A stretch of 32,868 bases of DNA, taken from positions 1 through 32,868 of the IMG/VR virus record IMGVR_UViG_3300025608_000057; one strand, given 5' to 3'. Positions 2,694 through 20,373 of this stretch are shown here, piece after piece; the first letter of the stretch is position 1, and the number at the start of each line of letters is the position of its first letter. The DNA comes from a virus (taxonomy: Duplodnaviria; Caudoviricetes). The position numbers were made by a program, and so were the translations under genes. The notes beneath the pieces were generated by a model, which did no database searches, was not told where the DNA came from, and saw only the letters and a program-made list of their open reading frames with translations.

Positions 2694-2845
2694 TATCCTA
2701 TATTTCCACCTCTTTTACGGCATTTTGCAATATAACCTGAAGCGTAAGCTGATGGAAACACTCTGTATTTAGCTTTTGCTTTGCGATAGCATGCATCCTT
2801 TTTTAATAAAGGAGAGGCATTTGATGTTACAATGTTATATTTCAT
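2693..2845 (-). CDS. 50-aa basic protein with PSAYASG motif (not in ORF track)
   Basis: Manual translation gives MKYNIVTSNASPLLKKDACYRKAKAKYRVFPSAYASGYIAKCRKRGGNIG*. TAATG stop/start overlaps at both ends (2845 and 2693). Confidence 0.8.
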   Translation of the reverse strand: MKYNIVTSNASPLLKKDACYRKAKAKYRVFPSAYASGYIAKCRKRGGNIG

Positions 2846-5800
2846 TATTTAAACTTTTTAAATTTTTCAAACTTTTTAAACTTTTTAAATTTAGAAGATG
2901 GCTTTTTAGTTTGTTTTTCAATCATGCCTAAATCCCACTCTGAATATCCCAATGTGAGAGCAATTGATTGCCATAATTCTGTTTCTGATTCCATTGCTGT
3001 TTTAATATGGTCAGCTTTTATTATAGCTCTATCTGCAGGTAAATTTGTTAATGCAGATACTATTCGACCTCCTGCTAAAAAAGCTGGATTATCTAAGCTG
3101 AATCCTTCTGTTCTCATCTTTTCCTTATCTTGTCTATAAGTAAAAGCTTTAGCAGCAGAGTTTAATTTATTTAATTTAGAGTTTATTGGCGGAGATAAAG
3201 AAGTTGCTTTCATAACAGCTTTTGTATAATCTGTTCTTTTAGCTTTGTTCTGCTTTATAATTTCAAGAATAACATTTTTAGATGTTGATGCTATTGCACC
3301 ATATAAACCAGTTCCGCGTAACAAAGTATCTAGTGACCCATTACCTATATTCCAAAGTCTTTCTTTTTCTTTATCATCTTCTTCATCAGAAAATAACAAA
3401 GCAAATAATGCTTGTTGTAAAGCTGAGAACACTACGTTTTGTATTACGCTATAATACATTAACTTACTAATATTTGTTTTCCAATCTCCACGCCCAGCAG
3501 CTAAATCTTGCATAGCTTTTTTAGTTAATCTAGCATATTGCATTGGTGTATTAGCAAAAGCTAATATAACTCTACCTAAAGAGCTAGCTTGTTGCATACT
3601 GATTCTGTCAGGTCTTGATGATTGTTGAGATTCTTCTGCTGTTTCGGTAAAATCAAGAAAAGCTTGTTCTTGTGCAGCTTCTTGACTCATTCCATCTTTA
3701 ACATATTTATTAAGTCTGTTTCTATAAAATGAAGCTCCTCCAATAGCAATTGCAAAACTATCCGCCATTTGTGTAGGTAAAAAACCAAATTTTAGTATTG
3801 CATTAAAAGCAGCTCTTACTTTATTATCAGCAGTTTTTGCTGCACTTGCAATTTCATCAGCATTAACATCTGTTTTTAAACCTGCTCTACGTTGCTTTAG
3901 AAAATCAGAATTAAACAAAAACCCAAAATCATTCCAAAACTGACTTTGATTTGCAAATGCCTTTGCAGCCATTATAGGATTATTATCTGTAAAGTTTATA
4001 AAGTTTACAGCAGATATAGTTTGAAGCAATGCAGATCTGGCATTTAAGAACATGATTGAACCAACTGAACCGTTAACCCATTCTAGCCAAGCTCTTTCTA
4101 TTTTGTTCCCACCCGCTCTTCTATTGCGTCCATCTTTCATTCTATATAGAATATCTGTAAGTGATTCTACATATTGATCCCCATATAATGCTTTTAACTT
4201 ATTGATATTAGGTCCTTCAAGTTTACCTTGTTTAAATTCTCCAAATATTTCTTCAACATTATCTTTCCATTCTTGCATGTACTCACTACGTTTAACTTGA
4301 TTAACGTATGATAACATGTCTGTTGTAATAGTACCTTCTAGCCAGTTTCCGCTTGGATTTGCATATTCACCTGGAGGTGCTAATGAAATCAGTTGTTCAG
4401 CAAAGTTTTTTAGGTTTTCATTTTTATTTATAAACTTAATAACCTCATTTACATCTTGTTTGCTAGATCCTTCTGGAAGAGTATCTTGCCTATTCCAAAT
4501 GTATAGCCTTACTGCTTGTTCATTAGTATATCCCGTTTCATTTGTTTTACCAAGCTTAGCTGGAGTATTATTAATTTGCTTTTTAAGATTTGCCCATGCA
4601 TTCATAGACATTTGCTTATCAGTTTCAAATTGTCTTATAGCTTTAGCAAAAGGCGTAAGCAAATTGTCTTTATAAAATTGCATTTGCTCATCTCCTTTTT
4701 TACTCTTAGCTAGTGTAGTATATAAGAGTCCAACAAAATCTTCAGCTGAATAAGGTACAAAGAATTTATATTTACCTTTTCCTTTACCAATTATTGATGC
4801 TTTGTCTGCTGAATACTCTTTAGCAAAATCAATTCCTGTTGATGCTTCAAGAAATTTATTAAAGTCTTTGCTTAAAGATTTAGAATATTTAAATTCTCCC
4901 TCATCAAATGTATAATCTGTTTTAGACAACGCATCTGAGTATCTAAAAATACCTTTAGGTGGCATTTTATCTTTATATTTTTCATCTACAATTTCAGCAA
5001 AATCTTTAGGAACTAGATTAGCTTCCATTGTATTAAAAAGATTTTTTAAATCATTTTTTTTAGAATCAGAAGGATTTTTAAAATAATCTATTATTTCATT
5101 AAAAACAAACTGTACGGGGGGATTATGTTCATAAACTGTTTCTCCGCTATAATTTTGAACAATCCTATTCAACGTAGCAGCTCCTCTGAATATTGTTCTT
5201 TGATCTTTTTGATTTAACTTTATAATCGATGCCGCTAGCCCAGGATGTTTTTTGCCTATATTAAATACAATATTTTGTAAAGCATCCCTTGCCTCTGCAT
5301 TTTGATTATTAACTTCAGCTTTAGTAATTTCTCCAGACATAATTTGATTACGAACAGAGTTACTTGTAACATCTATTAGTGTTCCAATAGCCATATCGCC
5401 ATATCTTATATAAGATCTTTGCCCGCTTTTTAATAAATTAAACTTTTTCTTAGAGCTAAGACCAGTTCCTTTTATTGTTGGATATATAACGTTTTCCCAT
5501 AAAGCTTTATTTGTTGTTAATTTTAATTCACCTTTTTTAGAAGAAACACTTCTAGTACCTCTAGAAAATATTTTAATAAAATGAAAAACTATATCTTCTG
5601 CTAAAATAGTGTCATTATTGTCTATAGCAGTATTTACAGCTTTATCAAAAGCTGGAACAACTATATCAAAAAATACTTTTGGATATGATTTTTTAAAAGA
5701 TTCGTTATTTATAGAATCAGCAATATCAGGAAAATCATTAGCTAATTCTATCATATTTTTTTCAAACAGTATACTAGCAAGTTCCTGAGAAGATAAACTA

Positions 5801-8800
5801 TATTTAACTTCAGCTTGGTTAGCTAATGATTTTGAAAATTTAAAATTTTCAGATCTATCAATTTGCTTAGCAATTACTGCTTTGAAATTTTCAGGCAATA
5901 CTTCACCTGTAATACCCGCAATATCTTGGTATTTATTTATCACATCGGGACTTTGTAAAACTTCCATTGTAGCATCAAACGCAATTTCTTCCGCTACTGC
6001 TTCAACTACTGCTGTTTTTCTAGTTCCCTGTGTAGACCTTCCAACATCTGTACCTAAAAAATATTTAATCCATTCGGCTGGGGTTATCTTCTTTTTAGTA
6101 TATACTTTATTGCCTTCAGCGGTTTTTTCTCTTACATGCTTTCCATTTTTATCAAGCACTGGCTCTTGAAAATCTTTAAATCTTCTATTAATTAAAGACT
6201 GAGGTAATTTATTATATATTGATTGAAAGTTATCGCGCAAAAAAGATTCGTAATCAGCTTGCTTACCTACAAATTTTGCAAGAGGTTTTTTAAGTTCAGT
6301 TCTAAATCTTTTTTGTAATTCTAATCTAAATTTAGGATCTTGTGGGTTTGGCAGTTTAGTACCAAATGTTTTTATTACAGCATCTTTAACTGTTGTAACA
6401 AGCTCCTCAGATAGCCCAATTTCTTTTCTTAGACTTTTTATTTCGTCAGCAATTTCAACTTGTTCTTGAGCTTCTATAGACTCTTCTGTAGAGGTATCTG
6501 TAACTGCTTTAGCTTCTGTAACATCAAGTTTAAATTCAGTATCTAATATACGATTAGCAGCTTCAATAGCTCTTCGTTCTAATTGTCCTTGTATATATGT
6601 ATTAAGGGTAGCACCTTTAGAAGTATCATAAGCATTAATAAGATCTAGTAAACCGCGTTTACCAATTTCAATTTCACTTTGAAGTAATTCAAAATCAAAG
6701 CCAGGAACATCTCTATATTTATTTGTTATACGTTTTGTTAAAGGTTTATACGCTTCAATTATATCAAAAGCACCATCTTTGCCTTTTTCGTCAAATATTT
6801 TTTGTATATTATCACCTGATATTGATTTTTTTGACTGCTGTATTTCTTGTTTTACAGCTTGTGGTATTTTAGAAGATTTTAAGTCTACCCCTAATTGTTT
6901 AAATTTAAATTCAGATATATTTTTTTGATAATTGCGTATAAAATTAAATACATCTTTACCTGTTTCAAGTTTAACTGATCCAAAGCCTAAGCCATTCAAA
7001 AATCTTGTAGTTGTATTTTTTATTTTATCTGATAAAGACTCATTAACTATAATTTTTTCTTTAGCTACAAGATCAGAAAAAACATTAAAATATTCTTCCA
7101 ATGCTCCTCTTTCTATATTACCAGCCTCATCTGTATAGTTTAAATCAATCCGTTCCTGTACTCTTTGATATACCTCAGGCTGTGTTTCTTTTAAATAATC
7201 TTTAAAGCTATCTACTAAAGGTTGCATAGAGGCATTATCTGTAGCGAACTTTTGAGCCATCATATAATGCAATAACTCATGACCTATAGCATTAGTTTGC
7301 TCTGTTTCAAGAGCTTTAGGGCTGTTTACAATTACCGTATTGGTATTTGGATCAAAGCTAGCATCAAATTCTGCTTTGGGATCAGATAAATATTCAAATT
7401 TTACGTTTTTTACTTTTTGTTTTGCTTTTACAAAAGCCTCATTAATACGTTCTGTATTTTTTAAAGTTTTACTAATATTTTTTTCAATATCAGCATCAAA
7501 CATTTCTTTCCCTACTAATGTTTCATTTTCATTTGCAGCATTCTGCAATTGCTGTTTTGCAAAATTTTGTTGTGATTTTGTATATCTAGCATTATTTATC
7601 TCACCCGTAGCATCGGCTATAATAGAAATATTATCTGTAAATTTTAATATTTCCTTTTTAGTTAAGCCATCAAATGCAGTATTTAACTCTTTTAGTCTAT
7701 TTTCTTTTTGTAATTCTAAAACATTAATTTGTTCTTGAAATTTTTTCTTTTTATTACTAGGAGCTACTTGTAAATTAATTTTAGCCTCAATTATATTTCT
7801 TTGAATTTCATTATTTTTTAATCTCCAATTTTTAGGAGCAATAAATTGATAAGCTTTGTTTTTATCTATATTACTAAAACTAATTCCTCTTCCTGTACCT
7901 GTAACAGGACCACCCATTACAGCTCCAACAATAGCACCATTTAAAAAATTCCTAATATAAGCAGCTCCTTCAATTTCGTCTTCATAAAGCTTATCATCAA
8001 TAAAAGTTTGTCCTATTGCCGTTACGCCTTCTGTTAAACCTTCTGAAACTGATCCACCAATACCAGCGCCTAAAGTTTTTAAAGATTTTTCTAAGAAATT
8101 TGAAGTAAAATCTTTCATTACTTTATTTGTAATGCCTGTTTTATTTAAAGCACCTAAGGTCTTAGCAAAATAACCACCAGCAAACTCAGTTGCAGTTTCT
8201 ATCCCTCCTTTTAATAAAGATCCACTTGCTATTTTAGAAATAGATTCTTCAGGTCTTTCTTTTAATTCTTTTTCAAATTCACCTCCCGCAGTGCTCATAC
8301 CTAGTAATGCACTTCCATAAATAGGTGAAGCTATAGACAGGGCTAATGAAGGTGCGGAGCCTAAAGCTTGATTAACAGCTAAATCAGCTGCATCTACATA
8401 ATTACCCTCTTCTATCAATCCGTATATATCTTTTTCTCGACCTTCTTCATCAAACTTTTTTGTAGACAAATTACTAATAAGATCAGCTGCGTCAGTAATT
8501 GCTGATAAATCTAAATTATTATTTTTTGCAATTTTTTCATATTCTGATAAAGCATATCCAGGATTTATATTTGCTGTTCCTCCTGTTTTTAATAATGCAG
8601 CAATTGGAGCCATACCATATTTTTCTACAAAATCGCCTAAACCTGCGGCTGTATTTAAAACCCCTGACGCAATACTTGATACCGAGGGTATAACACTTTT
8701 TGGTAGTCCAGTAAAACTAGAAACAAAATTTTTAGAAATTTCTTGCTGTATTTCTTTATCTTTCTTGTCACCTTGTAATTCCAAAGAAGTATCTACCAAT

Positions 8801-8985
8801 GGTAATTCCGTACTTTTTAGTTCGGGTGTTGCATTTACCTCCGCAGGCACACCCTGATTGTCTTCCTGTGGAGGGGTTATCTTTCCCGATTCACGAGATT
8901 CATATTCTTTAATAACAGACGCAATATTTTCTTCCGGCTCACCCGCATCAATCATGCGTTGAACAATTAATTCAAGTTCATTCAT
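2845..8985 (-). CDS. Giant putative ejection (internal virion) / polyvalent protein with zincin, sigma-70 region-2-like and C-terminal helical domains
   Basis: 2046 aa, third gene of the post-nozzle cluster. It has Gly/Ala-rich hydrophobic helices with SEGLTEG, HELLH at aa 569-573 plus a downstream EE, and a sigma2-like GLLDLINAYDTSKGATLNTY. The C-terminal region resembles large polyvalent proteins. Confidence 0.75.
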   Translation of the reverse strand: MNELELIVQRMIDAGEPEENIASVIKEYESRESGKITPPQEDNQGVPAEVNATPELKSTELPLVDTSLELQGDKKDKEIQQEISKNFVSSFTGLPKSVIPSVSSIASGVLNTAAGLGDFVEKYGMAPIAALLKTGGTANINPGYALSEYEKIAKNNNLDLSAITDAADLISNLSTKKFDEEGREKDIYGLIEEGNYVDAADLAVNQALGSAPSLALSIASPIYGSALLGMSTAGGEFEKELKERPEESISKIASGSLLKGGIETATEFAGGYFAKTLGALNKTGITNKVMKDFTSNFLEKSLKTLGAGIGGSVSEGLTEGVTAIGQTFIDDKLYEDEIEGAAYIRNFLNGAIVGAVMGGPVTGTGRGISFSNIDKNKAYQFIAPKNWRLKNNEIQRNIIEAKINLQVAPSNKKKKFQEQINVLELQKENRLKELNTAFDGLTKKEILKFTDNISIIADATGEINNARYTKSQQNFAKQQLQNAANENETLVGKEMFDADIEKNISKTLKNTERINEAFVKAKQKVKNVKFEYLSDPKAEFDASFDPNTNTVIVNSPKALETEQTNAIGHELLHYMMAQKFATDNASMQPLVDSFKDYLKETQPEVYQRVQERIDLNYTDEAGNIERGALEEYFNVFSDLVAKEKIIVNESLSDKIKNTTTRFLNGLGFGSVKLETGKDVFNFIRNYQKNISEFKFKQLGVDLKSSKIPQAVKQEIQQSKKSISGDNIQKIFDEKGKDGAFDIIEAYKPLTKRITNKYRDVPGFDFELLQSEIEIGKRGLLDLINAYDTSKGATLNTYIQGQLERRAIEAANRILDTEFKLDVTEAKAVTDTSTEESIEAQEQVEIADEIKSLRKEIGLSEELVTTVKDAVIKTFGTKLPNPQDPKFRLELQKRFRTELKKPLAKFVGKQADYESFLRDNFQSIYNKLPQSLINRRFKDFQEPVLDKNGKHVREKTAEGNKVYTKKKITPAEWIKYFLGTDVGRSTQGTRKTAVVEAVAEEIAFDATMEVLQSPDVINKYQDIAGITGEVLPENFKAVIAKQIDRSENFKFSKSLANQAEVKYSLSSQELASILFEKNMIELANDFPDIADSINNESFKKSYPKVFFDIVVPAFDKAVNTAIDNNDTILAEDIVFHFIKIFSRGTRSVSSKKGELKLTTNKALWENVIYPTIKGTGLSSKKKFNLLKSGQRSYIRYGDMAIGTLIDVTSNSVRNQIMSGEITKAEVNNQNAEARDALQNIVFNIGKKHPGLAASIIKLNQKDQRTIFRGAATLNRIVQNYSGETVYEHNPPVQFVFNEIIDYFKNPSDSKKNDLKNLFNTMEANLVPKDFAEIVDEKYKDKMPPKGIFRYSDALSKTDYTFDEGEFKYSKSLSKDFNKFLEASTGIDFAKEYSADKASIIGKGKGKYKFFVPYSAEDFVGLLYTTLAKSKKGDEQMQFYKDNLLTPFAKAIRQFETDKQMSMNAWANLKKQINNTPAKLGKTNETGYTNEQAVRLYIWNRQDTLPEGSSKQDVNEVIKFINKNENLKNFAEQLISLAPPGEYANPSGNWLEGTITTDMLSYVNQVKRSEYMQEWKDNVEEIFGEFKQGKLEGPNINKLKALYGDQYVESLTDILYRMKDGRNRRAGGNKIERAWLEWVNGSVGSIMFLNARSALLQTISAVNFINFTDNNPIMAAKAFANQSQFWNDFGFLFNSDFLKQRRAGLKTDVNADEIASAAKTADNKVRAAFNAILKFGFLPTQMADSFAIAIGGASFYRNRLNKYVKDGMSQEAAQEQAFLDFTETAEESQQSSRPDRISMQQASSLGRVILAFANTPMQYARLTKKAMQDLAAGRGDWKTNISKLMYYSVIQNVVFSALQQALFALLFSDEEDDKEKERLWNIGNGSLDTLLRGTGLYGAIASTSKNVILEIIKQNKAKRTDYTKAVMKATSLSPPINSKLNKLNSAAKAFTYRQDKEKMRTEGFSLDNPAFLAGGRIVSALTNLPADRAIIKADHIKTAMESETELWQSIALTLGYSEWDLGMIEKQTKKPSSKFKKFKKFEKFKKFK
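2848..2892 (-). repeat. 9-bp-period tandem repeat encoding KFKKFKKFEKFKKFK
   Basis: About five degenerate copies of AAACTTTTT/AAATTTTT on the + strand, at the extreme 3' end of the 2046-aa gene. Confidence 0.8.
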
Positions 8986-8986
8986 A

Positions 8987-10315
8987 TTATTGTTTATTTT
9001 GCGTTGAGTATTTAGCTAATAAATCAGCAGGATTCATTGGTTCTTTAGACATTTCTTCTCCTGTTATTTTTAAAGACATTAATAAATTTGGTACATCTTT
9101 TTGTTCTAGCATTCCGTTCTCTACTCTAGCCGCTATGATTTGTCTCATTTTTTCAGCATCTGTCATGCTATCAAGCACAGGAATTTTTCCGTTTAAAATT
9201 ATACCACTATCATTAGGGTAAGGGCTTCCTTCTTCTCCTTTTTCAAAAGTAGAAGCAACGCCTCCTGAAGCAATAGTAATACTATTAATATCACTAAAAT
9301 CAACTTTACTTAAATCTTGAGATGCTAAAATAGAACGATCAGAATACTCTCTTTGTTCTTTTTGCTCTTTTAATATTTGAGCAGCTGTTAAACCTTTAGT
9401 TTGGTTTTTATCAATTTTTGCAGAGGCAATCTTTTGATGCCTTCCATATGCTCTATCGTATGATGTTTTTGCTGCTTTTTTATAATTATTTTTAATAATA
9501 TCTATAAGTTGATTTTTAACATTGTCTCCTAAATCATCTAACTTGCCATTATCTTCAAAATCTTCACGTATTTGATCTATGGTAACACCTTTAGGTAAAT
9601 CAACACCTAATTCATCAACTACAATGCTAGCTATATCTGCATCAGAATATCTAGTATTATTTAACTCTTCGTTTATTTTACTTTCAAAATCGTTTTCATC
9701 CCAACCTTGTAAACCATATTTTTCATAACTTTGCCCAAGAGCAGTTAATTGATTTCTATAAGCATCAGATCTTCTTGATATATGTCTTGTGTTAACTAAT
9801 GAATTAAAATCTTTTACTGTACCATCAGCAAATACAAACTCGTCACCTGACACTTTAAAATTACCTTGAAAAATATCATTAACTCTTTCCATTAACTGAG
9901 GACTATTTAGTTTACTTAAATCCTCCGGGCTTGTATCAGCAAATTGAGCTATCCATTGTTTAAAATCACCAGCTTTGGTTGCAACTTTTCCTATACTAGC
10001 AACCGCATCTTGGATTGCCATTTGTCTTTCAACAGGATTTAGGTCTTTATTTCTTATAGCTTCTAAGGCTTGACTTCTAGCCTCTAAAGCTTTACCCATC
10101 GCCCATTCACGCATTTGCATAGGTACTTGACTTTCGTCTAATTGAGGAAGTTGAGCAATTGCTTCAGCTTGAAGTTGCTGTCTTCTTTCTTCTACAAGTC
10201 TAGCTCTTTGTATTGCTTGTTCTCCTCTCTGAACAGCAGGTCGAACAGCTCCTGCTATATCTAAGGGTCTACCTCCGCCTATTGCTTGTCCAATTAATCT
10301 TGTATCTAATGCCAT
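8987..10315 (-). CDS. Putative ejection protein (middle), ~442 aa
   Basis: The likely start is ATG at 10315 (MALDTRL...), after an AT-rich leader and without overlapping the upstream gene. Helical, Gln/Glu/Lys-rich, and positioned between the small and giant ejection-type genes. Confidence 0.65.
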   Translation of the reverse strand: MALDTRLIGQAIGGGRPLDIAGAVRPAVQRGEQAIQRARLVEERRQQLQAEAIAQLPQLDESQVPMQMREWAMGKALEARSQALEAIRNKDLNPVERQMAIQDAVASIGKVATKAGDFKQWIAQFADTSPEDLSKLNSPQLMERVNDIFQGNFKVSGDEFVFADGTVKDFNSLVNTRHISRRSDAYRNQLTALGQSYEKYGLQGWDENDFESKINEELNNTRYSDADIASIVVDELGVDLPKGVTIDQIREDFEDNGKLDDLGDNVKNQLIDIIKNNYKKAAKTSYDRAYGRHQKIASAKIDKNQTKGLTAAQILKEQKEQREYSDRSILASQDLSKVDFSDINSITIASGGVASTFEKGEEGSPYPNDSGIILNGKIPVLDSMTDAEKMRQIIAARVENGMLEQKDVPNLLMSLKITGEEMSKEPMNPADLLAKYSTQNKQ

Positions 10316-10325
10316 AATATATATT

Positions 10326-11039
10326 TTAAAATCCTCCTGCAGCAATTCTTCCAGCTCCTGCAGCAATATTAGCAACACCTCCTACTAAACCTTCAGTAGC
10401 TTGCCTTCTTGCTTCATCGGCTGCTAATTTTCTTGTTGCAGCAGTTTCGTACATGTCTTCAGTTCTGCCAAATTCTTTTTCTTGAACATACTGAGCACCT
10501 CTAGCTCTTGCTCCTTCTAATTGCTGTTGGCCTTGTGCTCTAGCCATTTGATTTCTAGCCTCTTGTTGGCCTATACTAGCGGAGGATGCTTGTAGATTAG
10601 TTGATTGTTGCTGGGCTAGTGTTTGAGCAAGTGCTGCAATTCCAGACCCACCAGCTGTTCTTTTTAAACTACCTAGCGTTCCTGCTAACGCCTGTTGCTG
10701 TTGTTGTGCTGCAAATTCAGACGCTTGAGTGTTTACTTTTAAATCTTCAAACGGATTTGTCATATTTGCTGTAGGGTCTTGAAATTCAAAGCTTTCGTAA
10801 GCTTTTCTTTGCTTTTCTAAATCAGCGCGTGCTGCTCTTTGCTCTTGTCTACGAGCACGACCTCCTACAATTCCGCCAGCAACTCCAGCTAACCCTTCCG
10901 CTATTTGTCCAAACGCCCCCGCGTCTGCTTTAAATGCTTTTTGTAAACCTTGTCCAAATGACTGTTGTCCTGCCTCGCTAAATTTTCCTTCACCCACTGC
11001 TGATTGAAAAGCTCCAGATTTATATATAGTGTCGCTCAT
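10326..11039 (-). CDS. Putative small ejection (pilot) protein, Gly/Ala/Gln-rich
   Basis: 237 aa. Hydrophobic Gly-rich segments (GLAGVAGGIVGG; GLVGGVANIAAGAG) flank a Gln/Ala coiled coil. Composition and position match podovirus small ejection proteins (P22 gp7/T7 gp14 type). Confidence 0.7.
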   Translation of the reverse strand: MSDTIYKSGAFQSAVGEGKFSEAGQQSFGQGLQKAFKADAGAFGQIAEGLAGVAGGIVGGRARRQEQRAARADLEKQRKAYESFEFQDPTANMTNPFEDLKVNTQASEFAAQQQQQALAGTLGSLKRTAGGSGIAALAQTLAQQQSTNLQASSASIGQQEARNQMARAQGQQQLEGARARGAQYVQEKEFGRTEDMYETAATRKLAADEARRQATEGLVGGVANIAAGAGRIAAGGF

Positions 11040-11367: not shown

Positions 11368-14300
11368 TTATATTATAAGATTCATTTTTCCTTCTTTCCA
11401 ATTATTACCTTGTATAAAAATAGGTATTTCAATCTTTAAGGTGTCTGGAATATTTTTAAAGTTTTTAGGCGCTAAATAAGCGGATGTAAATTGATCTTTA
11501 GTAATTGTAAGTATTACTTTATTCACTGTTGTAATTGATGGTTTTTTAGAATCATCAAATGAAAATATACTTACTCCGCCTGTTCCTGAAACTGCTACAT
11601 CTTTTGGCGTATAATTTTCAAGTATTGTGGGTCGATCATTTGAATATGGACCAAAAGTGATTGTAATATTATTTACATAATCAGAGTCTAAATAAAAAGT
11701 ATTAAAATTCGATCTTCGTGGTAAAAAATAATATGATGTTTGGTTTTTTCTAAATTTTAGAGGAGGTACCCAAAATGAAATTTCGCTATATTGTTTACCT
11801 GCATTATTTTCTATCCAATACTGAAAACTTATAGCAATATTACTAGTAAGTTCAAGTTCATATGATACAGTATTACCGTTTTTAGTAAAATGTTTATTTT
11901 TATAACCTTTATCATAAAAAAGGGCTTCTGATGACCTAATCTCACTAAGACTATATTTAAAAATTGTAAGCCCTATATTAGAAAAAGAATTAGTATTAGA
12001 AATTATAGCATTTATTTTTAATTTACCTAGCCCTTCTATTGTTGCATTGGTTAATTCTAAAGGTTGCATTGTTATTGCAGGAAGCACTAATGATTTATTT
12101 GTAGTAAATGTTAAAATTTCATTACTATAACCATAACCACCAGAATTTTTAGCATAAGATCTAAAAGAATATGTTGTATTTTCTGCTAGTCCAGATATTG
12201 CTTTTGAAAAATTACCTACAAAATCAGTTGTATCTGCAATTTGCACACCTGCATAATTTATATCAAAATTTGCCGTACTCAATCCAGCTCCTGGAAAATA
12301 AATAAAACCAGATTCAGTAATTGATGAATTTCCCGCTGATACTATTTTTCCATTTAATATTGCAGAGTTTTCTGTTAAAGAAGTTGCGGCTGATATATTT
12401 AATGCAGGAATAACAGCATCTTCTAATGTAAAAGTCTTGATATTTCCATATGAAAATCCTTTTTCACCCTCTCCAAAAGCTCTATATCTATAATTAATAT
12501 TACTTAATAAATTATTTACAGTTTTATTAAAAGCACCTGTAGTTTGTCCACTAATGCTAAAAATAAAATCATTATTTATAACATCAGGTACTCCTTGTGC
12601 TGATAATACAAAACCTTTGCCTAATAATGTAGAACCGTTAATATTCGTTATATTACCATTTAATTTTACACTATTACTTGTTTTATCTGTAGCGTCATTT
12701 GTTACAACAGTTGGTAGACCAAAAGCACCAGTAGTTAAACTATTTGCGGAACCATAATAAATTGTTGTACCTGTTCCTTGCCAATTGTTCTTTAAAGTAA
12801 CACCAAAAGGATATATAGTGGCATTGTTGTTAGAGTTATATGGGATATCTGAAGCTGTTTTACCTTTTATCCATGCAAACGCTTTGTAGTAATAAGTTGT
12901 ATCAGGTTTTAAATTATATATATTTAAGCTGCCAGTAACCGACGTGCCAATATTATTATCAAAAACAAACATCTTTACATTTGATGGTAATGTAAAATCT
13001 GAATTAAATGCAGGGTTACTATTTTGATCTGATATTAAAACACCATAAGAAATAAGATCTGTATTAACTTTTGATGGATTAGATAACACTGCACCAAAAT
13101 TAGCTTTATAACCTTCTTGCCAATTACCAATCTGAAGATTAGTTGCTAAGCTATTCTTTTTAACATAAGATACGCTTGATGCTGTTGATGTGCTAACAGA
13201 TAAAGATATTGATTTATTGTAAACTATAGGGACCTGAATAGTGTCAGAATATGCTATATTGTCCGTTTGTTTAGTGTTTTTTGCATAAGCTTTTAAATAC
13301 AAAACTGGTGAGTGTTCAAACAAAGGATTACTAGAACTAACTGCTCCACCATCTTTTGTAACATATAAAGGTCCTGTGTGATCAGTAGGCTTTGCATCAA
13401 TTACTTTTACTTTAATACCATTAGTATCAACATTTAAACTAGGTATATTCATATTTGTATATGACTCTGAATATTTACCTTTATTTATCGTATTAATAGG
13501 TAAGTTAATTGAACCTGTTAGCCCGTTAGGTAATTGATATATAGTGTCATAAGTAATACCAACCTCAGATATATCAGCTCCTCCAGAATAAGATATATTT
13601 GCAATAACAGAAAAAGATGCGTATGAATTAGATACTATTTCAATGCTGTCAATAATAGGCTTTGTACCTCTATCAATTTTTGATTTATTTATTAAAACAT
13701 TTACACTCCCCCCTTTTATCTCAACAATTTCATTGCCTATAGAATAGAATAAGTCATCTAATAAAATTGTTCCATTTTCATCTTCAAAAAACTTATCACC
13801 AGGTTGAGGGTCATTAGGGTCTCCATTTGTATAAACAACTTTGTTTTCTACAACGTTGTCAGAAGCCGCATCTTTTTTGTCGTTAAACCCTGTAGAAATA
13901 ACTATTGGAGTTATTAATCTTATTGGATCTGGGGTTTGTATTTTAACGTCTAATATAGCGTTTTCTGCTGTTGCTGTATAAGGTATTGAGCATACAATAG
14001 CCCCATTATTATCTATAGTAGTTGTAACACCACCTACTCCTAAAGTTGCATTTGTAGCAGTAGTGGTTACTGTTATTGTTCCAGCGTTTTCAAAAGTAAA
14101 ACCATTTACAGGTGCAATAGTTTTAGTTATAGTTTTTGCAATGTTAACTTCAACATTATCAGAAAAAGAATTAACAAGATTAGCATTACCTCCAGATGTT
14201 GAAATATAAGTTACACTATCTACAGGATCATTATTAGAGTCACTACAATAAATATTTATTAATGTATTTGAAATAGTTTTATTTGCCGCATCAAATGTTG

Positions 14301-17300
14301 ATATTGTTTTTGGCTTTAAATTTATAGTTGAATTAGTATTTGGGAATAAAACAGATTTATCAATTTTAAATCCTATTGAAATACTTTTATCATCATTTTC
14401 TTCATATATAAAAGAATCTACATAAGTAGATGTAACGTCAGTAGAATTTTCTTCAAGTATAAAGTTTTCAATTAAAAACGTTTTTATATCTGAAGGTCTT
14501 TCAAAATTATAACTTGCCGACGGAACCAATTTAAACAATAAAAGATTATTTGCTGCATCACCTATTGATGATCCAGCATTGCCTGTAACATCTATATTGT
14601 TAGCACTTGAGTATGTGTAATTTACTGACCCAGGAACAGCAAAAGAAAAAGTAAGAGTAATTTCTTTGCTTACAATATTATCTATATTAAGAATTATTTC
14701 TTGATTCCCTAAAAACTCTTCAACATAAACATCCGCAGTAATTTTTAAATATCCTATGTTTCCTGAAGTTAATATTTCACTACTTAAATTAGAATATTTG
14801 ACAATATTATTTTCACCTGAAATAGAAATAAAATCATTTGGTATTATGTCTCTTATTTCATTCCAAGTAACTCCTGAAGGCGGACCAATTTCCCAAGAAA
14901 GTGTTTTTGTTCCGTTTGAGCTTTCTTTTTCATAACCTGTAATTACCTGCGTGTTTGATCTTCCTGCTTGAAATATTATACCATCTGTAAATACATATGA
15001 AAGTGCTGAAATTTTAATTTCGCTTATATCATTTTGCTTTTGATTTATAGAAAAAGGTTCACCTAAACCTATGCCAGGGGCTTCATCTGTATTATTACCT
15101 GGATCAATTTGTACATTTACAGTAGTGTCGGCTAGAGAAGCGGGCACATCAAAAGTTATCCCAACTTCTCCTTCATCAGGAATAATAAAGGGTATTGATT
15201 CAATAACATCTCCATTTTCATCCAAAATTAATGCCGAGCCATCAGCACCAGGGTCACCTATAATTTCAACAATTAATTCACCGCCATCTAAGGGTATACT
15301 AGTTTTAGGAATAATTACCCCTTCTATTTTAGGGTTAGGAATTATTTCTTCAATAGCAGACAAAGATATTTCGTAATTAATATTTGCTTCGTTTATTCCA
15401 TCAATAGTAATAAACTCTGTTAAAGTTATAGTGCCATCTGAATTTTTTATAGCGTCAAAGGTAGCCCTTCCGTTATTAGACTCTATATCATCAATAAAAA
15501 TATTATATCCGCTATCGGGTGTTATTTTTCTTATAACAGTTTGTATTTTTCTGTTTTTTGTATTTGTAACGGAATAAGCACCAGAAGCTGTATTTATTGT
15601 TGCATTTTGAATGTTTGAAGTAAAATTACCACTTACTGTAAATTCTTTTTCTTTCGCTACTCCTTCATATGGTATTTCGAATATTTCATCAATCCCATCT
15701 TCAGTGACTGCATCGCTATCATCTTTAAGTTTTCCATCTCCTGTTAATGTTTCAATATCATCAAATATTATTGTATCGTCTTCTTTGAAATTGCTATCAT
15801 CATTAGATTTTTTAATTTCTTCTAACTTTTCAACAGGTACCTCAGCAACAATATTATCCCCATCTTTAGTCCAATCAATACCTTTTGTTTTAAAATCTTT
15901 CGGATCTAATTCATAACCGTCTTTAGGTTGTATTTCAATTTTAGCCAATTTGCTTGTGTCGTCAAAAGAAACAATAGTTTCTTTAATAGCAATCCCCGTT
16001 TCATTAACTATAGGTTTATCGCAACTAAAGCCAGCTATAGTTTTTGGCTTTAATTTTATTTTAAATGTTTTTTGTGTTTTTGCTGTTACTGATGATACGC
16101 TAGAAGGTTTTCCTATACCTTGTACTGAAAAGTTTTTTAAATCAATATTAGAAATATTTTTATCTTCTCCTTGTATATTACTAAAGTATTTGTTTTCTTT
16201 TTCTATAAAAGAAAGTGTTGAACTTGTGTTTTGATCTGTTACAACTTTTGCTTTCCAATCTTTAGTTCCTTCATAGCTTAAAGTTCTAAATCTTTTTACA
16301 ACAGAAGCATCTTGATTAATAACATATTGAACTGAAGAAGTATATTGCGTGCCATAAAAATTATTTCTTAGAGCATTAACAGAGTCCTGTTCCCAAAGTT
16401 CACCATTATTATAAGTGTAAAATTTACTATTTAATGACACTCCCGCGTCGGGAACAAATGATTTTCTACTTGTCCATCCTTTAGAAGCTTCGTCAAAACA
16501 AATGGTGTCCAAACAAGGTATACTTACATTATAGCATCCATTATATTCATCGTAAGAACCTATAAATGTACTATATGTGTTTAACCTATTTTTAAAAAAG
16601 TCTGAAACGCCAACTATAGATATATCAGTTAACCCATCCATAGATAATCTTAAAACAGCTCCCCTTACTTTATCAACAAAATAAATTCTATAACCATGTA
16701 CCGCAAAAGATTCAGGATTTAATCCTATACCATACTCCCCATTAAAAGGTATTGCGGATCCAAGAACTAGATTAGATGCGGCTAAATTACCTGTACCGTC
16801 AGCATTGTAAAGCATATCTTTGTCAGCCAATACTTTTACAATCTTATCCTCACATAAAGCAACAAGGTCACTATCTCTAGTATATAGCTTTTGAATACTA
16901 CCGTAAGAAGGCAACAAATTTTTTGTTATGTTTAGCGCTTGAATAAATTGATTTGACTCGTTAATTCCATTTTTAGAATTAATTATCCCAGACCAAATTA
17001 ATCCATTGCTTACCCTGTCTTCTTTATATTTTTCTTCTAGCGTAGTTGATGCTCTTACTCCTTTGTCAATTGTGGGCGCATTAAAATCATCTCTAATTCT
17101 ATTTGATTCAACACCATTAAAATTAAATGCATTATACCATCTTAATATTTGCTCATCCCCATGCTGATCTATAGAATAAGCATCTTGTGTTTCATAATAT
17201 AAATCTAAATCAACAATATTTTCTTTAGGTTCAGTTTCAAATACAGCGGGGGATAAACTGCTAAAACCAGCATCATCACTTATTTTTTCTTTTATAATTG

Positions 17301-20300
17301 AAAAACTAAATTCAGGCGTATCATTGCCATAAATACAAAGATTTTCTTTTAGTCTTTCTGTAAATTTAATATGAACTGTACTTTGTTTATCTCCACCTAG
17401 AATTTGCAGCCACCCATGATCAGTTCTTTCTGTTATTTTTAAATCTTCAACTTGGTATTCGTGATCATGAGTACTAAATTTTATTTTAGAGCCTACTTCA
17501 ATAACGCCTAATAAAGTAGCATCTGTAAACCTACTAGATTGAGTAAAAGATATATCAAATTCGGTTTTAGTATTTTTATCTTTAAACCTCTTGCCTTTTC
17601 TTCCTCTTTTTTCACCTGTAGTTGTTCCACCACCACCGTTTTTTAAACCACCGTGAGAAACAAAATAAGGAAATACTTTTTTATCTATTTTACCTGGCCT
17701 TGTTTTTCCGTTTTCATTATCATTTCCATTTATTTGAGACTCAGTATGAATGGATATATATTCCTTATCTTCTTCAGCTATTAATTTTTCAATAATAGAT
17801 TTTTCAAGAATATTGTTATTTTTTAATTTAACAAAAAATCGGCCAGCAAACTCAGAAGTGTTTATATTAGTATCTTTTTCAGAAACTTGCATTGTTATAT
17901 TGCTATACAAAGCTCCGGCGTCTGTATATAAAGATTCTACATCTGAGTCAAAAGATCCATAAATAAATATTTGAGCAAAATTTTCAGCACCATTACCTCC
18001 TGTAATAGTTTTTATATTTTTTATTTTATAACTATTACTTTCTTTATCATTACCCTCTGCTATAAATTTTATGTTTTGCCCTGTAGTTAATAATTTTACT
18101 TGGGTATCATTTATTCCATCACTACCAGCTGTTCTTCCTATAATAATAGAAGTTCCGCCTTTAACAGGGGTTTGATTAGTTGCTTTTGTGTTTATAGTAT
18201 TAGATGTAACAGCTCCTAACGTTTTTAAAAACTCAACTTGTGATAAATTTGTAACTACCTTTTGCTTAGCTGTAATAAACTCAGGGGGTTCGTTTTTTAT
18301 TTCTAGTACTTTAAATCTATTATTTTCAGAAACAACAGGGTCTGGACTATCGTGTTCTTTTTTAAGCAATAAATAATCTTCTTTATTTAGTTTATTTACA
18401 TCTGAGGAAGGTAAAGATAGCCATACAAAACTAGGATCGTCTTCTTCTTGATAAACTCTATCTATAGCTAAATTATAGTATTCATTACTAACTTCTTTTA
18501 TAAAATACTTAAAATGAGTAGCCCAAGCGGGAGCGGCGCTGTTTATTTTTACTTTAGCAGCGTTATTTTTTATAGAAAATCTTTTATTTAAATTTAAAAT
18601 TCCAGATGGGTTAGAAAAAACAGGAGACTGCCTGTTAAATTCATCTATATATACAACACCTATTTGATAATTTCTGTCTGATTTTAAAGTTCTTTGCCCA
18701 GCTACCGATGCATTTATTGGATAATCTTCTCTAGCTACAGTAAAATCTACTTTATTAGTTACATTATAGTTTTGTAAATAATTGCCATAAATTATTCTAT
18801 TTGATGAAATTTCTTGAGCTTTTGCTTTTCTTGGAACATTATCCCATTGCCTTAATAATTGATTATTTTCAACTACAGAATGAATAATCTCTTTTTCTAA
18901 TTCATATATACCGTTAAAATCAGATTTATTTTTTTTGTCAATAATATATAAATTATTATTACTACTATCTTTATATACAATCTGTATTTCTTCTACATCA
19001 TCATCGCCCAAAGATATGTCAGTTAATTTTATGCTTCTAACATTATTTGTCATAGCTAAATTATAACCTTCCTGATGATTATACCTAAAATTAGTTCCAG
19101 GTAAAAAAGCAGTTTCTGAAAATGGAGATAAAGTGGAATATTCTCCATCATAATATTTCCATCTATAAGAAAAACGTGGAAATTTTAATTCATACAAAGA
19201 TTTTCCTTGATCTTGTTTTAATTCAAAAACAAAATTTTCATCTTCAACCTCTCCTATAAGAGATAGTATTTTTAAATCAATCGTTTTTGTAGTAGTGCCT
19301 GTAATTTTAACAACCTCTAATTCTCCCTCAACTTTGGTTGATTGGCCCGATACGGGCTCAAAAGTAATAAAACTTCCTTCTTTCCATTGTATATTATCAG
19401 CAGTCCATGTTATAGTAAATTTATTATTTTTATTTGTATCTAAACCATTAAAGTTTAAACTAAGCACTCTAATATATTTACCTAATTGATTAGGAGTAGC
19501 GTTTAAATCTAATTTAGGGGCTGATAGGGGAGCTTTTTTTGCAACAGCTATATCTTTTTCTTTAAAAGATTTTCCGTTAATCTGGGTTCTTATATTTGAG
19601 TTCCCATTTGTATATTTTTTAAACTTAGATATATCAATTTTTCTTGGCTGATTAAAGTCATCAGTCCAAAATAATATACCGTCTATAATATTTATACCTG
19701 TTATGAATTTATTTTTATTAAAATTCAATATAGTATTGTATACATACTCAGCATTCAGGTCAATTATTTCAAGAGTATTACCTAAATATTCAATATCGTA
19801 AAATACTAATTCATTGTTTTTTTGGTATTCTATAATAGTATTTTTTGGTATTTCAATATCTATATCAAATACAGTATTTTTTAAATAAACCGTATTCTTT
19901 ATAAGAGTCTGACTGCCAATTAATTGTGTATTTAAAGATCCCCCTATTATTAATTCTAATTCTAATTTATTGTAGTTTTTAATTACAAGTTCAGAATTTT
20001 CATTAGATTTAATTGTAACACCTCCTAATACGGAGTTACTTTTACTTTTTAAATCTACTAATATAGGAACTACTTTATTTTGTATTTGGTTATACTCATA
20101 TATAGAGTCTGAATAATCACTAGTTACAAACCAATATATTTTTTCTTGTAAATCCCATTTTATAGCACCTATTGTTTTTGAATTTTCTAATGTACTAGTT
20201 ATTGCTGAAATTTTTTCATTACCTAATAGGTTTTCAATAGCTCCAACATCTGAGCCTTCTGAATTTGTTATATTAACATTAAGAGCATCGCGGTATTCAC

Positions 20301-20373
20301 CATTAGGTATCAATCTTTCGTCAGAATCTTTATTCATTCGACCCAACGTAAAAGTATTTTTAATTTCTGCCAT
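11368..20373 (-). CDS. Tail nozzle/muzzle (stabilization) protein with long C-terminal Ig-like/FN3 extension
   Basis: 3001 aa. The N-terminus (MAEIKNTF..GRMNKDSDERL..GEYRDALN) and motifs LFWTDD.NQPRKI, RFSYRWKY.DGEYS, NRIIYGNY, YGSIQKL and YGIG.NPESF match crAss-like/P22 gp10-type nozzle proteins. It follows two ring-protein genes. Confidence 0.82.
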   Translation of the reverse strand: MAEIKNTFTLGRMNKDSDERLIPNGEYRDALNVNITNSEGSDVGAIENLLGNEKISAITSTLENSKTIGAIKWDLQEKIYWFVTSDYSDSIYEYNQIQNKVVPILVDLKSKSNSVLGGVTIKSNENSELVIKNYNKLELELIIGGSLNTQLIGSQTLIKNTVYLKNTVFDIDIEIPKNTIIEYQKNNELVFYDIEYLGNTLEIIDLNAEYVYNTILNFNKNKFITGINIIDGILFWTDDFNQPRKIDISKFKKYTNGNSNIRTQINGKSFKEKDIAVAKKAPLSAPKLDLNATPNQLGKYIRVLSLNFNGLDTNKNNKFTITWTADNIQWKEGSFITFEPVSGQSTKVEGELEVVKITGTTTKTIDLKILSLIGEVEDENFVFELKQDQGKSLYELKFPRFSYRWKYYDGEYSTLSPFSETAFLPGTNFRYNHQEGYNLAMTNNVRSIKLTDISLGDDDVEEIQIVYKDSSNNNLYIIDKKNKSDFNGIYELEKEIIHSVVENNQLLRQWDNVPRKAKAQEISSNRIIYGNYLQNYNVTNKVDFTVAREDYPINASVAGQRTLKSDRNYQIGVVYIDEFNRQSPVFSNPSGILNLNKRFSIKNNAAKVKINSAAPAWATHFKYFIKEVSNEYYNLAIDRVYQEEDDPSFVWLSLPSSDVNKLNKEDYLLLKKEHDSPDPVVSENNRFKVLEIKNEPPEFITAKQKVVTNLSQVEFLKTLGAVTSNTINTKATNQTPVKGGTSIIIGRTAGSDGINDTQVKLLTTGQNIKFIAEGNDKESNSYKIKNIKTITGGNGAENFAQIFIYGSFDSDVESLYTDAGALYSNITMQVSEKDTNINTSEFAGRFFVKLKNNNILEKSIIEKLIAEEDKEYISIHTESQINGNDNENGKTRPGKIDKKVFPYFVSHGGLKNGGGGTTTGEKRGRKGKRFKDKNTKTEFDISFTQSSRFTDATLLGVIEVGSKIKFSTHDHEYQVEDLKITERTDHGWLQILGGDKQSTVHIKFTERLKENLCIYGNDTPEFSFSIIKEKISDDAGFSSLSPAVFETEPKENIVDLDLYYETQDAYSIDQHGDEQILRWYNAFNFNGVESNRIRDDFNAPTIDKGVRASTTLEEKYKEDRVSNGLIWSGIINSKNGINESNQFIQALNITKNLLPSYGSIQKLYTRDSDLVALCEDKIVKVLADKDMLYNADGTGNLAASNLVLGSAIPFNGEYGIGLNPESFAVHGYRIYFVDKVRGAVLRLSMDGLTDISIVGVSDFFKNRLNTYSTFIGSYDEYNGCYNVSIPCLDTICFDEASKGWTSRKSFVPDAGVSLNSKFYTYNNGELWEQDSVNALRNNFYGTQYTSSVQYVINQDASVVKRFRTLSYEGTKDWKAKVVTDQNTSSTLSFIEKENKYFSNIQGEDKNISNIDLKNFSVQGIGKPSSVSSVTAKTQKTFKIKLKPKTIAGFSCDKPIVNETGIAIKETIVSFDDTSKLAKIEIQPKDGYELDPKDFKTKGIDWTKDGDNIVAEVPVEKLEEIKKSNDDSNFKEDDTIIFDDIETLTGDGKLKDDSDAVTEDGIDEIFEIPYEGVAKEKEFTVSGNFTSNIQNATINTASGAYSVTNTKNRKIQTVIRKITPDSGYNIFIDDIESNNGRATFDAIKNSDGTITLTEFITIDGINEANINYEISLSAIEEIIPNPKIEGVIIPKTSIPLDGGELIVEIIGDPGADGSALILDENGDVIESIPFIIPDEGEVGITFDVPASLADTTVNVQIDPGNNTDEAPGIGLGEPFSINQKQNDISEIKISALSYVFTDGIIFQAGRSNTQVITGYEKESSNGTKTLSWEIGPPSGVTWNEIRDIIPNDFISISGENNIVKYSNLSSEILTSGNIGYLKITADVYVEEFLGNQEIILNIDNIVSKEITLTFSFAVPGSVNYTYSSANNIDVTGNAGSSIGDAANNLLLFKLVPSASYNFERPSDIKTFLIENFILEENSTDVTSTYVDSFIYEENDDKSISIGFKIDKSVLFPNTNSTINLKPKTISTFDAANKTISNTLINIYCSDSNNDPVDSVTYISTSGGNANLVNSFSDNVEVNIAKTITKTIAPVNGFTFENAGTITVTTTATNATLGVGGVTTTIDNNGAIVCSIPYTATAENAILDVKIQTPDPIRLITPIVISTGFNDKKDAASDNVVENKVVYTNGDPNDPQPGDKFFEDENGTILLDDLFYSIGNEIVEIKGGSVNVLINKSKIDRGTKPIIDSIEIVSNSYASFSVIANISYSGGADISEVGITYDTIYQLPNGLTGSINLPINTINKGKYSESYTNMNIPSLNVDTNGIKVKVIDAKPTDHTGPLYVTKDGGAVSSSNPLFEHSPVLYLKAYAKNTKQTDNIAYSDTIQVPIVYNKSISLSVSTSTASSVSYVKKNSLATNLQIGNWQEGYKANFGAVLSNPSKVNTDLISYGVLISDQNSNPAFNSDFTLPSNVKMFVFDNNIGTSVTGSLNIYNLKPDTTYYYKAFAWIKGKTASDIPYNSNNNATIYPFGVTLKNNWQGTGTTIYYGSANSLTTGAFGLPTVVTNDATDKTSNSVKLNGNITNINGSTLLGKGFVLSAQGVPDVINNDFIFSISGQTTGAFNKTVNNLLSNINYRYRAFGEGEKGFSYGNIKTFTLEDAVIPALNISAATSLTENSAILNGKIVSAGNSSITESGFIYFPGAGLSTANFDINYAGVQIADTTDFVGNFSKAISGLAENTTYSFRSYAKNSGGYGYSNEILTFTTNKSLVLPAITMQPLELTNATIEGLGKLKINAIISNTNSFSNIGLTIFKYSLSEIRSSEALFYDKGYKNKHFTKNGNTVSYELELTSNIAISFQYWIENNAGKQYSEISFWVPPLKFRKNQTSYYFLPRRSNFNTFYLDSDYVNNITITFGPYSNDRPTILENYTPKDVAVSGTGGVSIFSFDDSKKPSITTVNKVILTITKDQFTSAYLAPKNFKNIPDTLKIEIPIFIQGNNWKEGKMNLII
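11780..13665 (-). repeat. Four to five degenerate fibronectin type III-like domains within the nozzle extension
   Basis: Recurring patterns P...T..S..L.G.I, GF, and L.(P/E)NT.Y..(R/K)(A/S)(Y/F)A.N..G..YS/G, e.g. NLKPDTTYYYKAFA, NLLSNINYRYRAFG, GLAENTTYSFRSYAKNSGGYGYS. Confidence 0.72.

Follow-up and report, generated by a model that had tools for sequence, protein, structure and literature searches.

The DNA analysed here belongs to a marine phage of the Flavobacteriia-type podovirus kind with a crAss-like particle, and the last gene of its virion block encodes a giant protein in which residues ~724-815 are, by profile and predicted model, a diverged sigma-70 domain 2. It is probable, on the sequence comparisons described below, that this sigma-like module is delivered by the virion and redirects the host RNA polymerase (RNAP) to the early promoters of the phage; within this reading, packaging, cleavage and RNAP binding are steps that we infer.

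The window, that is, the whole stretch of 32,868 nt that was analysed (record IMGVR_UViG_3300025608_000057; Duplodnaviria; Caudoviricetes), is the late block of a podovirus. A co-chaperonin, terminase, portal, capsid and ring proteins are followed by a 3001-aa muzzle protein and then by three genes of 237, ~450 and 2046 aa, with a ribonucleotide reductase on the opposite strand after the 2046-aa gene. The muzzle and crAss-type structural block can be recognised from a PF25729 match and from gene order, and the giant gene lies after the muzzle, at the cargo position where it had been placed by the original prediction. The four genes from the muzzle onward are as follows.

11368..20373, minus strand: muzzle/nozzle protein with a crAss_MUZ_C domain (PF25729, E=1.5e-11; phrog_14478), which marks a crAss-type tail.
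10326..11039, minus strand: 237-aa Ala/Gly/Gln-rich gene, likely the first cargo/pilot protein, in the position of phi38:1 gp99 and Elemo gp88.
8987..10378, minus strand: gene of 442-463 aa, likely the second cargo protein, in the position of phi38:1 gp100 and Elemo gp89.
2845..8985, minus strand: 2046-aa giant protein, the last gene of the virion block and a likely cargo/ejection polyprotein.

Among cultured phages, Flavobacterium phage Elemo, the Cellulophaga phages phi38:1 and Calle, and phi13:2 are closest, and the nearest cultured groups, as placed by sequence, are thus Elemovirus, Pervagoviridae (phi38:1, Calle) and Pachyviridae (phi13:2) of Flavobacteriia. Structural gene order is shared with these groups, terminases are 46% and capsids 39-44% identical (Elemo, phi38:1, Calle), and in all of these groups the last gene of the block encodes a giant structural protein. 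The links to cultured phages rest on terminase, capsid and profiles; with the giant protein as the query, no match was obtained in Pfam and PHROGs or by tblastn against cultured phages. Its positional equivalents in Elemo, phi38:1 and phi13:2 (1691-3694 aa) are annotated as 'structural protein', labels that presumably rest on virion proteomics. The family profile of the giant protein matches the N-terminal part of these three giants and also the peptidase of Elemo gp90, with E-values that apply to an 11-sequence set and an N-terminal match that is perhaps partly compositional. According to the available text of PMC10172136, packaged cargo, RNAP proteins included, is encoded behind the muzzle gene in crAss001. 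On the basis of gene position, the annotation of the relatives and the crAss001 cargo genes, the giant protein is likely packaged in the virion and ejected with the DNA. As a hint of the host, one Flavobacteriaceae metagenome-assembled genome (MAG) contains a related phage contig.

A sigma-70 region-2-like domain had been read in this protein by eye at positions 6541-6770, which correspond to aa ~739-815, and the peptide quoted for it is indeed in place as aa 740-812 of the open reading frame (ORF) 2845-8985(-). Residues 740-815 lie inside the domain that is now delimited; its start is earlier, at aa ~724, where a region-1.2-like helix is added. The module and its two most informative elements are listed below.

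6541..6816, minus strand: sigma-70 domain-2-like module, aa 724-815 (regions 1.2 and 2.1-2.4), from profile, predicted fold and alignment.
6673..6675, minus strand: E771, aligned with the Glu of region-2.2 DLIQEG and invariant in 120 of 120 close homologs.
6562..6573, minus strand: region 2.4 motif R805-A-I807-E808 (RxIE), which tracks promoter base -13G in relatives.

The assignment to sigma-70 domain 2 is made because profile and predicted structure agree. A phmmer search of the Protein Data Bank (PDB) with the single sequence aa 721-835 gave five matches, four of them to sigma factors (best FliA, E=0.025), and a 95-sequence profile of aa 712-1056 reached SigK (E=5.3e-4) and SigE (E=1e-3), with sigma factors in 9 of 12 rows. 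The best match in the ESM Atlas was Sigma70_r2, with a score of 0.95 that is to be read alongside just 144 of 256 shared features. The AlphaFold2 model of aa 712-1056 has a mean pLDDT of 83, and when its helices 724-814 were compared with 48,161 chains, ranks 1-20 were all occupied by domain 2 of sigma-family proteins, T4 gp55 included, in line with the match to the sigma2 helical bundle that had been anticipated. The best structural match is SigB (8x6g; rmsd 2.6 over 86 residues), whose Z of 9.3 falls inside the range where the structure-comparison tool cautions for helical bundles, followed by pro-SigK (Z 8.3), sigma32 (Z 8.3) and gp55 (7d7d, Z 8.2). Foldseek returned no match to the two-domain model at E<=0.001 in the PDB, and otherwise one match, to an uncharacterised viral protein. 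In Pfam, Sigma70_r2 falls below the cut-off in the giant protein and is matched in 1 of 29 relatives (E=0.003), and a 2888-aa frame of a relative matches PF04542 with E=4.5e-4.

Like sigma-70 family domain 2 (PF04542), for which the nearest solved structures are SigB 8x6g, pro-SigK 8vjl, sigma32 8hkc, RpoS 5h6x and SigE 8b3z, the module is a helical bundle with regions 1.2 and 2.1-2.4, in which a DLIQEG-type helix, a Y/F-D-x-x-K-G motif and the region 2.3 Tyr can be aligned. Alignment with SigA places E771 on the Glu of DLIQEG, which we take to have a core-binding role, and shows a 3-residue insertion after it in region 2.2; this position is variable in distant family members. Y786 and Y797 retain the region 2.3 aromatics, and R805, I807 and E808 are 90-99% conserved among 120 homologs. 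As had been pointed out at the outset, the WW pair of sigma factors (W433/W434) is not conserved, the corresponding residues being G800/Q801, with F at 801 in 48 of 120 homologs. The stand-alone sigma factor encoded by relatives of this phage also lacks WW, and the loss of WW is therefore no argument against function. In contrast to sigma-70 factors, the phage module is embedded in a 2046-aa protein of the virion block, carries the region-2.2 insertion, has no WW and no region 3 or 4 that could be found, and is followed by a domain of unmatched fold.

The absence of a clear region 4, also part of the original prediction, holds in that no Pfam region-4 match was obtained in the giant protein and aa 852-1046 matched no sigma-4 structure. 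That the giant protein is itself an RNAP was rejected on motif grounds: the DxDxD catalytic motif, whose absence had already been remarked, does not occur in the 2046-aa protein, and D[FYLIVM]DGD does not occur in 205 homologs of at least 1800 aa. Comparison of the full-length giant-protein profile with the PDB listed no RNAP chain, aa 712-1056 being the part that was folded, and no RNAP was found among 42 proteins scanned from a complete relative (G002). By motif, then, the module is not an RNAP, and its status as a full sigma factor beyond domain 2 is putative. Derivation of the module from the stand-alone sigma of the phage was also considered, and the profile comparison was negative (probability 0.9%).

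The sigma-like module is flanked by other recognisable parts of the giant protein, listed here from the N-terminal side.

6928..7326, minus strand: zincin-like metallopeptidase, aa ~554-686, with H569-E570-L-L-H573 and E631, upstream of the sigma-2 domain.
6823..6834, minus strand: SKKS, aa 718-721, a degenerate form of the FSKS-type tag at the tag position of some homologs.
6433..6540, minus strand: aa 816-851, a conserved F-x-L-D-V-T-E stretch together with a flexible, acidic linker (11 D/E, 3 K/R).
5848..6432, minus strand: helical domain with a beta-hairpin and conserved basic residues, aa 852-1046, without a fold match.
5827..5838, minus strand: FSKS tag, aa 1050-1053, which ends the ~330-aa sigma-like module; candidate self-cleavage site.
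4888..5826, minus strand: variable insert, aa 1054-1366; an EH dipeptide (1286-1287) is seen in the family consensus.
4876..4887, minus strand: YSKS tag, aa 1367-1370.
2947..4884, minus strand: conserved C-terminal region, aa 1368-2013, possibly a channel or anchor part.

The peptidase and the tags go beyond the original account. Residues H569, E570, H573 and E631 are invariant in 120 homologs, and the HExxH...E motif fits the MPTase hub of phage polyvalent proteins as presented in the main text of PMC5512222. Among the 120 homologs, 159 [FY]SKS tags were observed where 8.3 are expected, with one cluster of 28 immediately ahead of the sigma domain (about -50 relative to the sigma motif) and another of 59 immediately behind the second domain (about +275). 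The tag is present in 89 of 180 peptidase-bearing homologs, compared with 3 of 18 peptidase-less ones, and about half of the homologs have no clear tag. Self-cleavage at FSKS-type tags would release a sigma-sized piece of ~330 aa.

Between the two domains of this piece, the linker is modelled with pLDDT below 50 over aa 824-847, and aa 816-851 could possibly be a stand-in for the sigma-finger (region 3.2). When folded alone, aa 852-1046 reaches a pLDDT of 91.5, and its structure search gave a best VIA Z of 5.4, no sigma-4 row and no Foldseek match. Residues 852-875 had been considered by eye as a region-4 helix-turn-helix, which these search results leave unsupported. The domain is a candidate reader of upstream promoter boxes.

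With clustering at 50% identity, the profile of the module retrieves no fewer than 739 protein clusters. In a set of 73 loci chosen by patterns outside the sigma domain, which yielded 71 giant frames and 64 non-redundant giants, the sigma-2-like module was found in 47 of the 64 at the first pass and in 58 after profile iteration, with a reversed-sequence control that reached at most 7.2 bits; in one of the six giants missed by the profile, a sigma-2-like stretch is visible by eye. The module lies 139-274 aa after HExxH in the 52 of these 58 giants that have an upstream HExxH. This retention bears on the proposal that the sigma-2 fold is a structural or relic part of an ejection protein that has lost its RNA polymerase contact. 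The large divergence within the family (13-24% identity among distant members), the failure of Pfam to detect the domain and the fact that cultured relatives manage without it are all compatible with a relic; it is the persistence of the domain in 58 of 64 giants, the near-invariance of residues on the polymerase- and DNA-facing helices among close homologs and the covariation of the domain with a promoter, described below, that make such a relic very improbable.

Another feature outside the original account is a separate sigma factor of ~245 aa with regions 2 and 4, which is encoded in 23 of 24 near-complete relatives.

Evidence for the use of the module comes from a promoter-like motif that is known from the early regions of relatives, the window itself being a late block. 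In the early region of G002, six copies of TTACA-n-AACACG-n-GGATAAT precede small ORFs, and a de novo dyad search across relatives recovered the same motif. In the form TACA-n8-ACG-n10-GATAAT, it is present in 26 of the 29 early regions of relatives, each with 5-10 copies. The search pattern ACA-n8-ACG-n10-GAT[AT][AT]T, with one mismatch permitted, found 182 sites in total, compared with 0.05-0.35 in each shuffled region and two on the opposite strand of all regions together. A position weight matrix (PWM) confined the sites to the early regions in G001 and G002 and found none in the late block of the window, in Elemo or in phi38:1. The three regions without the main motif are those of G047, which has a variant, G052, and G075, a 3-kb fragment. 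In G052 the module is intact and no full motif was found, the early region being almost absent, with one truncated site. The main motif is also absent from G046, which has the variant, and from G053, which seems to end before the early region.

When GATAAT is numbered -12 to -7, the ACG box lies at -25 and the TACA box at -37. At positions outside the search pattern, +1 is a purine in 98% and -1 a pyrimidine in 80% of sites, and of 23 ATGs located at +1, 21 are the first codon of an ORF, compared with 14 of 60 for an ATG at -2 and a background of 30%. As read from these sequences, the motif positions fit the geometry of bacterial RNAP initiation, with leaderless ATGs. The Flavobacterium sigmaA promoter is TAnnTTTG at -12 to -5, and the phage motif differs from it as well as from the SM5 and SM6 motifs, as these are given in the available text of PMC9723704. 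Matches to TAnnTTTG are near shuffled counts in most early regions (3 versus 2.75 in G002) and 2-4 fold higher in a few. In Elemo, sites of the TATATTTG type are found in place of the GGATAAT motif, and no module, stand-alone sigma or motif was detected in Elemo or phi38:1, which sets this family apart from the tested cultured relatives. The repeated motif is likely, from its sequence and placement, an early promoter private to the phage family.

It could be asked whether the host itself opens this promoter, with sigmaA or an extracytoplasmic function (ECF) holoenzyme, while the injected module sits on the upstream boxes in the role of activator or appropriator. There is a loose likeness between T(-7)A(-6)nn..TG(+1) and TAnnTTTG, the TTTG part is matched at 3 of 4 positions in 44 of 182 sites and at all 4 in 2, aa 852-1046 could be a DNA-binding activator, and, as far as the available text of PMC9723704 describes them, the motifs of the 7 ECF sigmas in F. 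psychrophilum are known only in part. The TAnnTTTG register, however, would put the start ~5 nt inside 21 leaderless ORFs, and the -13 base follows the phage domain. Sigma-2 domains also compete with host sigma for the same clamp site. Opening by a host holoenzyme, with the module as activator, is considered quite unlikely.

Covariation of promoter and module is seen at the base -13. In all 20 genomes whose embedded region 2.4 is of the RxIE type, G predominates at this base; it predominates in none of the six genomes without RxIE, where it was seen at 2 of 8 sites in G068 and at no site in the other five. On a tree of the C-terminal region of the giant protein, the RxIE/-13G label changes three times in all bootstrap trees, and one of these changes involves long branches (G065/G068). 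In the register used here, E808 aligns with sigma70 R441, which we take to be a -13 contact, and Glu808 could read the template C at -13. Over 25 genomes, promoter distance correlates with module distance (r 0.62; partial r 0.55 given the stand-alone sigma, p=0.001) and with the distance of the stand-alone sigma (r 0.53; partial r 0.42 given the module, p=0.001), with permutation p-values that ignore kinship. In G046 and G047 the promoter is rearranged to ATACGTTACA-n~16-GATAAT, and the module is most divergent there. Since the promoter changes in step with the sigma-2 domain, the phage likely injects its own sigma-like factor.

The same correlations give some room to the stand-alone phage sigma as the reader of the repeated promoters, in a positive feedback primed by weak host transcription, with the embedded domain only occupying host core, either to keep host sigma away, like a decoy, or to tether the DNA while transcription drives its entry. 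Its gene is nearly universal in the relatives, as noted above, it covaries with the promoter when the module is accounted for, its protein is likewise divergent in G046 and G047, and a search for late promoters found AT-rich leaders only and no separate promoter class for it. However, the promoter array precedes its gene, in the same orientation, and its region 2.4 is nearly constant where -13 varies, staying RI[KR]G[AG][IV]RR in those five of the six non-G genomes where it was read (G051 is the sixth), whereas the embedded region 2.4 varies. The near-shuffled counts of the host motif in most early regions also speak against priming by host transcription. Reading of the early promoters by the stand-alone sigma is on balance unlikely.

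The reading in which the injected module selects the early promoters can be set out as a sequence of steps. The giant protein with its sigma-2 module would travel in the particle and be delivered with the DNA, as gene position and the annotation of cultured relatives suggest. The upstream zincin may then release the ~330-aa piece (aa ~722-1052) at FSKS-type tags, a step that is optional because about half of the homologs are without a clear tag; the module may also act while tethered, in which case it could help to pull the DNA in. By homology, the module would dock on the beta' clamp helices of the host core through region 2.2 (E771). The covariation points to regions 2.3-2.4 as the part that would open and read (G)GATAAT at -13 to -7, and the domain at aa 852-1046 may take over from sigma regions 3-4 in recognising the ACG (-25) and TACA (-37) boxes. 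Gene order suggests that the stand-alone sigma would then be made from the early transcripts and act on later genes. Counterpoints to this scheme are that cultured relatives whose giants are annotated as structural lack the module, that the aromatic melting residues are reduced and that region 2.2 carries the 3-residue insertion.

This scheme resembles two known systems without coinciding with either. T4 gp55 and SPO1 gp28 are phage sigmas that redirect host core RNAP to phage promoters, and gp55, whose fold match to the module is given above, is essentially domain 2 only. The ~245-aa sigma of the present family belongs with them. All of these are free proteins, synthesised once infection is under way to serve middle or late genes, whereas the present module is encoded within a late structural gene and, brought by the particle, would be the first to act. 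The virion RNAPs of crassviruses (crAss001 gp47/49/50) share with it the arrangement in which the muzzle is followed by two smaller cargo genes and a giant cargo protein, as described in the available text of PMC10172136. With the RNAPs of crassviruses and N4 (vRNAPs) it shares the need to transcribe early genes at entry; here, a sigma-like module without catalytic DxDxD would stand in place of the enzyme, and host core would therefore be needed. The Crassvirales likewise have the muzzle and structural block but differ in having a virion RNAP among the cargo genes; as given above, the scan of 42 proteins of G002 found no RNAP and the 205 homologs lack the motif. The module thus appears, with good probability on this analysis, to work like a phage sigma while filling the role of a virion RNAP. 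The expectation of a sigma-like role gains from the covariation of the module with an early promoter-like motif unlike that of the host, and is to be corrected in that the nearest cultured phages are not RNAP-carrying crassviruses.

A further comparison is offered by polyvalent proteins with an MPTase hub (Iyer et al. 2017, PMC5512222), in which HExxH...E also stands beside effector domains in a packaged protein, as it would in the putatively packaged 2046-aa protein. According to its main text, N4-type vRNAPs are fused to a zincin peptidase, and T4 Alt targets host RNAP after injection; Alt, by contrast, modifies RNAP enzymatically and selects no promoters. The statement that sigma-like domains had been noted in polyvalent proteins was not borne out, as the main text of PMC5512222 has no instance of the word 'sigma' and names no sigma domain.

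Within the literature covered by a full-text search, which had most subscription papers outside it, no description of a virion-delivered sigma was found. To our knowledge, known phages start early transcription with host holoenzyme, injected RNAP or injected modifiers, and phage sigma factors are made only after infection. The present findings may accordingly be taken, with somewhat better than even confidence, to indicate, in a large family of marine Flavobacteriia phages, a third immediate-early route that would depend neither on host sigma nor on a packaged RNA polymerase, and in which an injected sigma-like factor composed of sigma domain 2 and a new-fold domain, cut from or tethered to an ejection protein, would use the host core enzyme at a private three-box promoter TACA/ACG/GGATAAT and would perhaps contribute to genome pull-in. 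This claim lends itself to direct testing, since it names a protein piece, a promoter, a start site and a residue-base pair (E808 with -13G). A particle-borne sigma, if true, would add a new strategy, in a family that numbers 739 or more protein clusters (50% identity), would make early transcription independent of the sigma state of the host, would represent a naturally occurring minimal sigma that dispenses with WW and region 4, and may provide a possible orthogonal sigma/promoter pair for Bacteroidota.

Two further features of the window concern the giant protein and the gene that precedes it.

4888-5826, minus strand: variable insert of the giant protein, which contains YEHNPP
8987-10378, minus strand: gene preceding the giant-protein gene, with a GTG start as listed that overlaps the upstream gene

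In some homologs (P0096 and P0117), the place of the insert is occupied by kinase-like Pfam families. For the preceding gene, an ATG at 10315, giving a product of 442 aa, agrees better with the relatives than the listed GTG.

The early regions of the related phages display several variations. On the minus strand of genomes G046 (L354, 43.9-48.0 kb) and G047 (56.9-63.6 kb), the early motif takes the form ATACGTTACA-n~16-GATAAT, in which the ACG box lies 5' of TTACA, whereas in the main motif, TACA-n8-ACG-n10-GATAAT, it is located between the boxes. The early gene array is almost missing from G052 (L345, 36.9-38.3 kb), where a single, truncated promoter copy is present; either this stretch was deleted or the assembly collapsed at the repeats.

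An inverted repeat, TGTGAC(GA)TAGC ... GGCTAATGTC(A/G)CA, is conserved in the early region of the complete genome G002 (L241) and at 20 further sites in relatives, positioned immediately 5' of a gene for a protein of ~205 aa and overlapping its start codon, with the stand-alone sigma gene coming next; additional copies occur close to the genome end. This repeat is a candidate operator or origin for the ~205-aa protein. Across the whole G002 record (L238-L241), a DNA polymerase was not found among the 42 scanned proteins, although a primase-helicase, Erf, an exonuclease, RNR, thymidylate synthase, and GroEL/GroES are encoded. A contig of a Flavobacteriaceae MAG (L251) encodes a phage GroEL that shares 89% identity with the G002 protein and has other phage genes beside it; the contig is either a hint of the host or a binning artefact.

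Homologs of the giant protein also differ in module architecture. In four loci (L056, L065, L069, and L075), the sigma-2 half is retained and the following domain is swapped for unrelated sequence; the main promoter motif is still present in one such genome, G060 (L065). G069 (L320 and L321) has two stand-alone frames, one of 263 aa and one of 260 aa, that match Sigma70_r2. Neither the HExxH peptidase nor FSKS tags occur in six homologs that retain the sigma module (L012, L016, L019, L033, L048, and L064), so the module may be active without cleavage.
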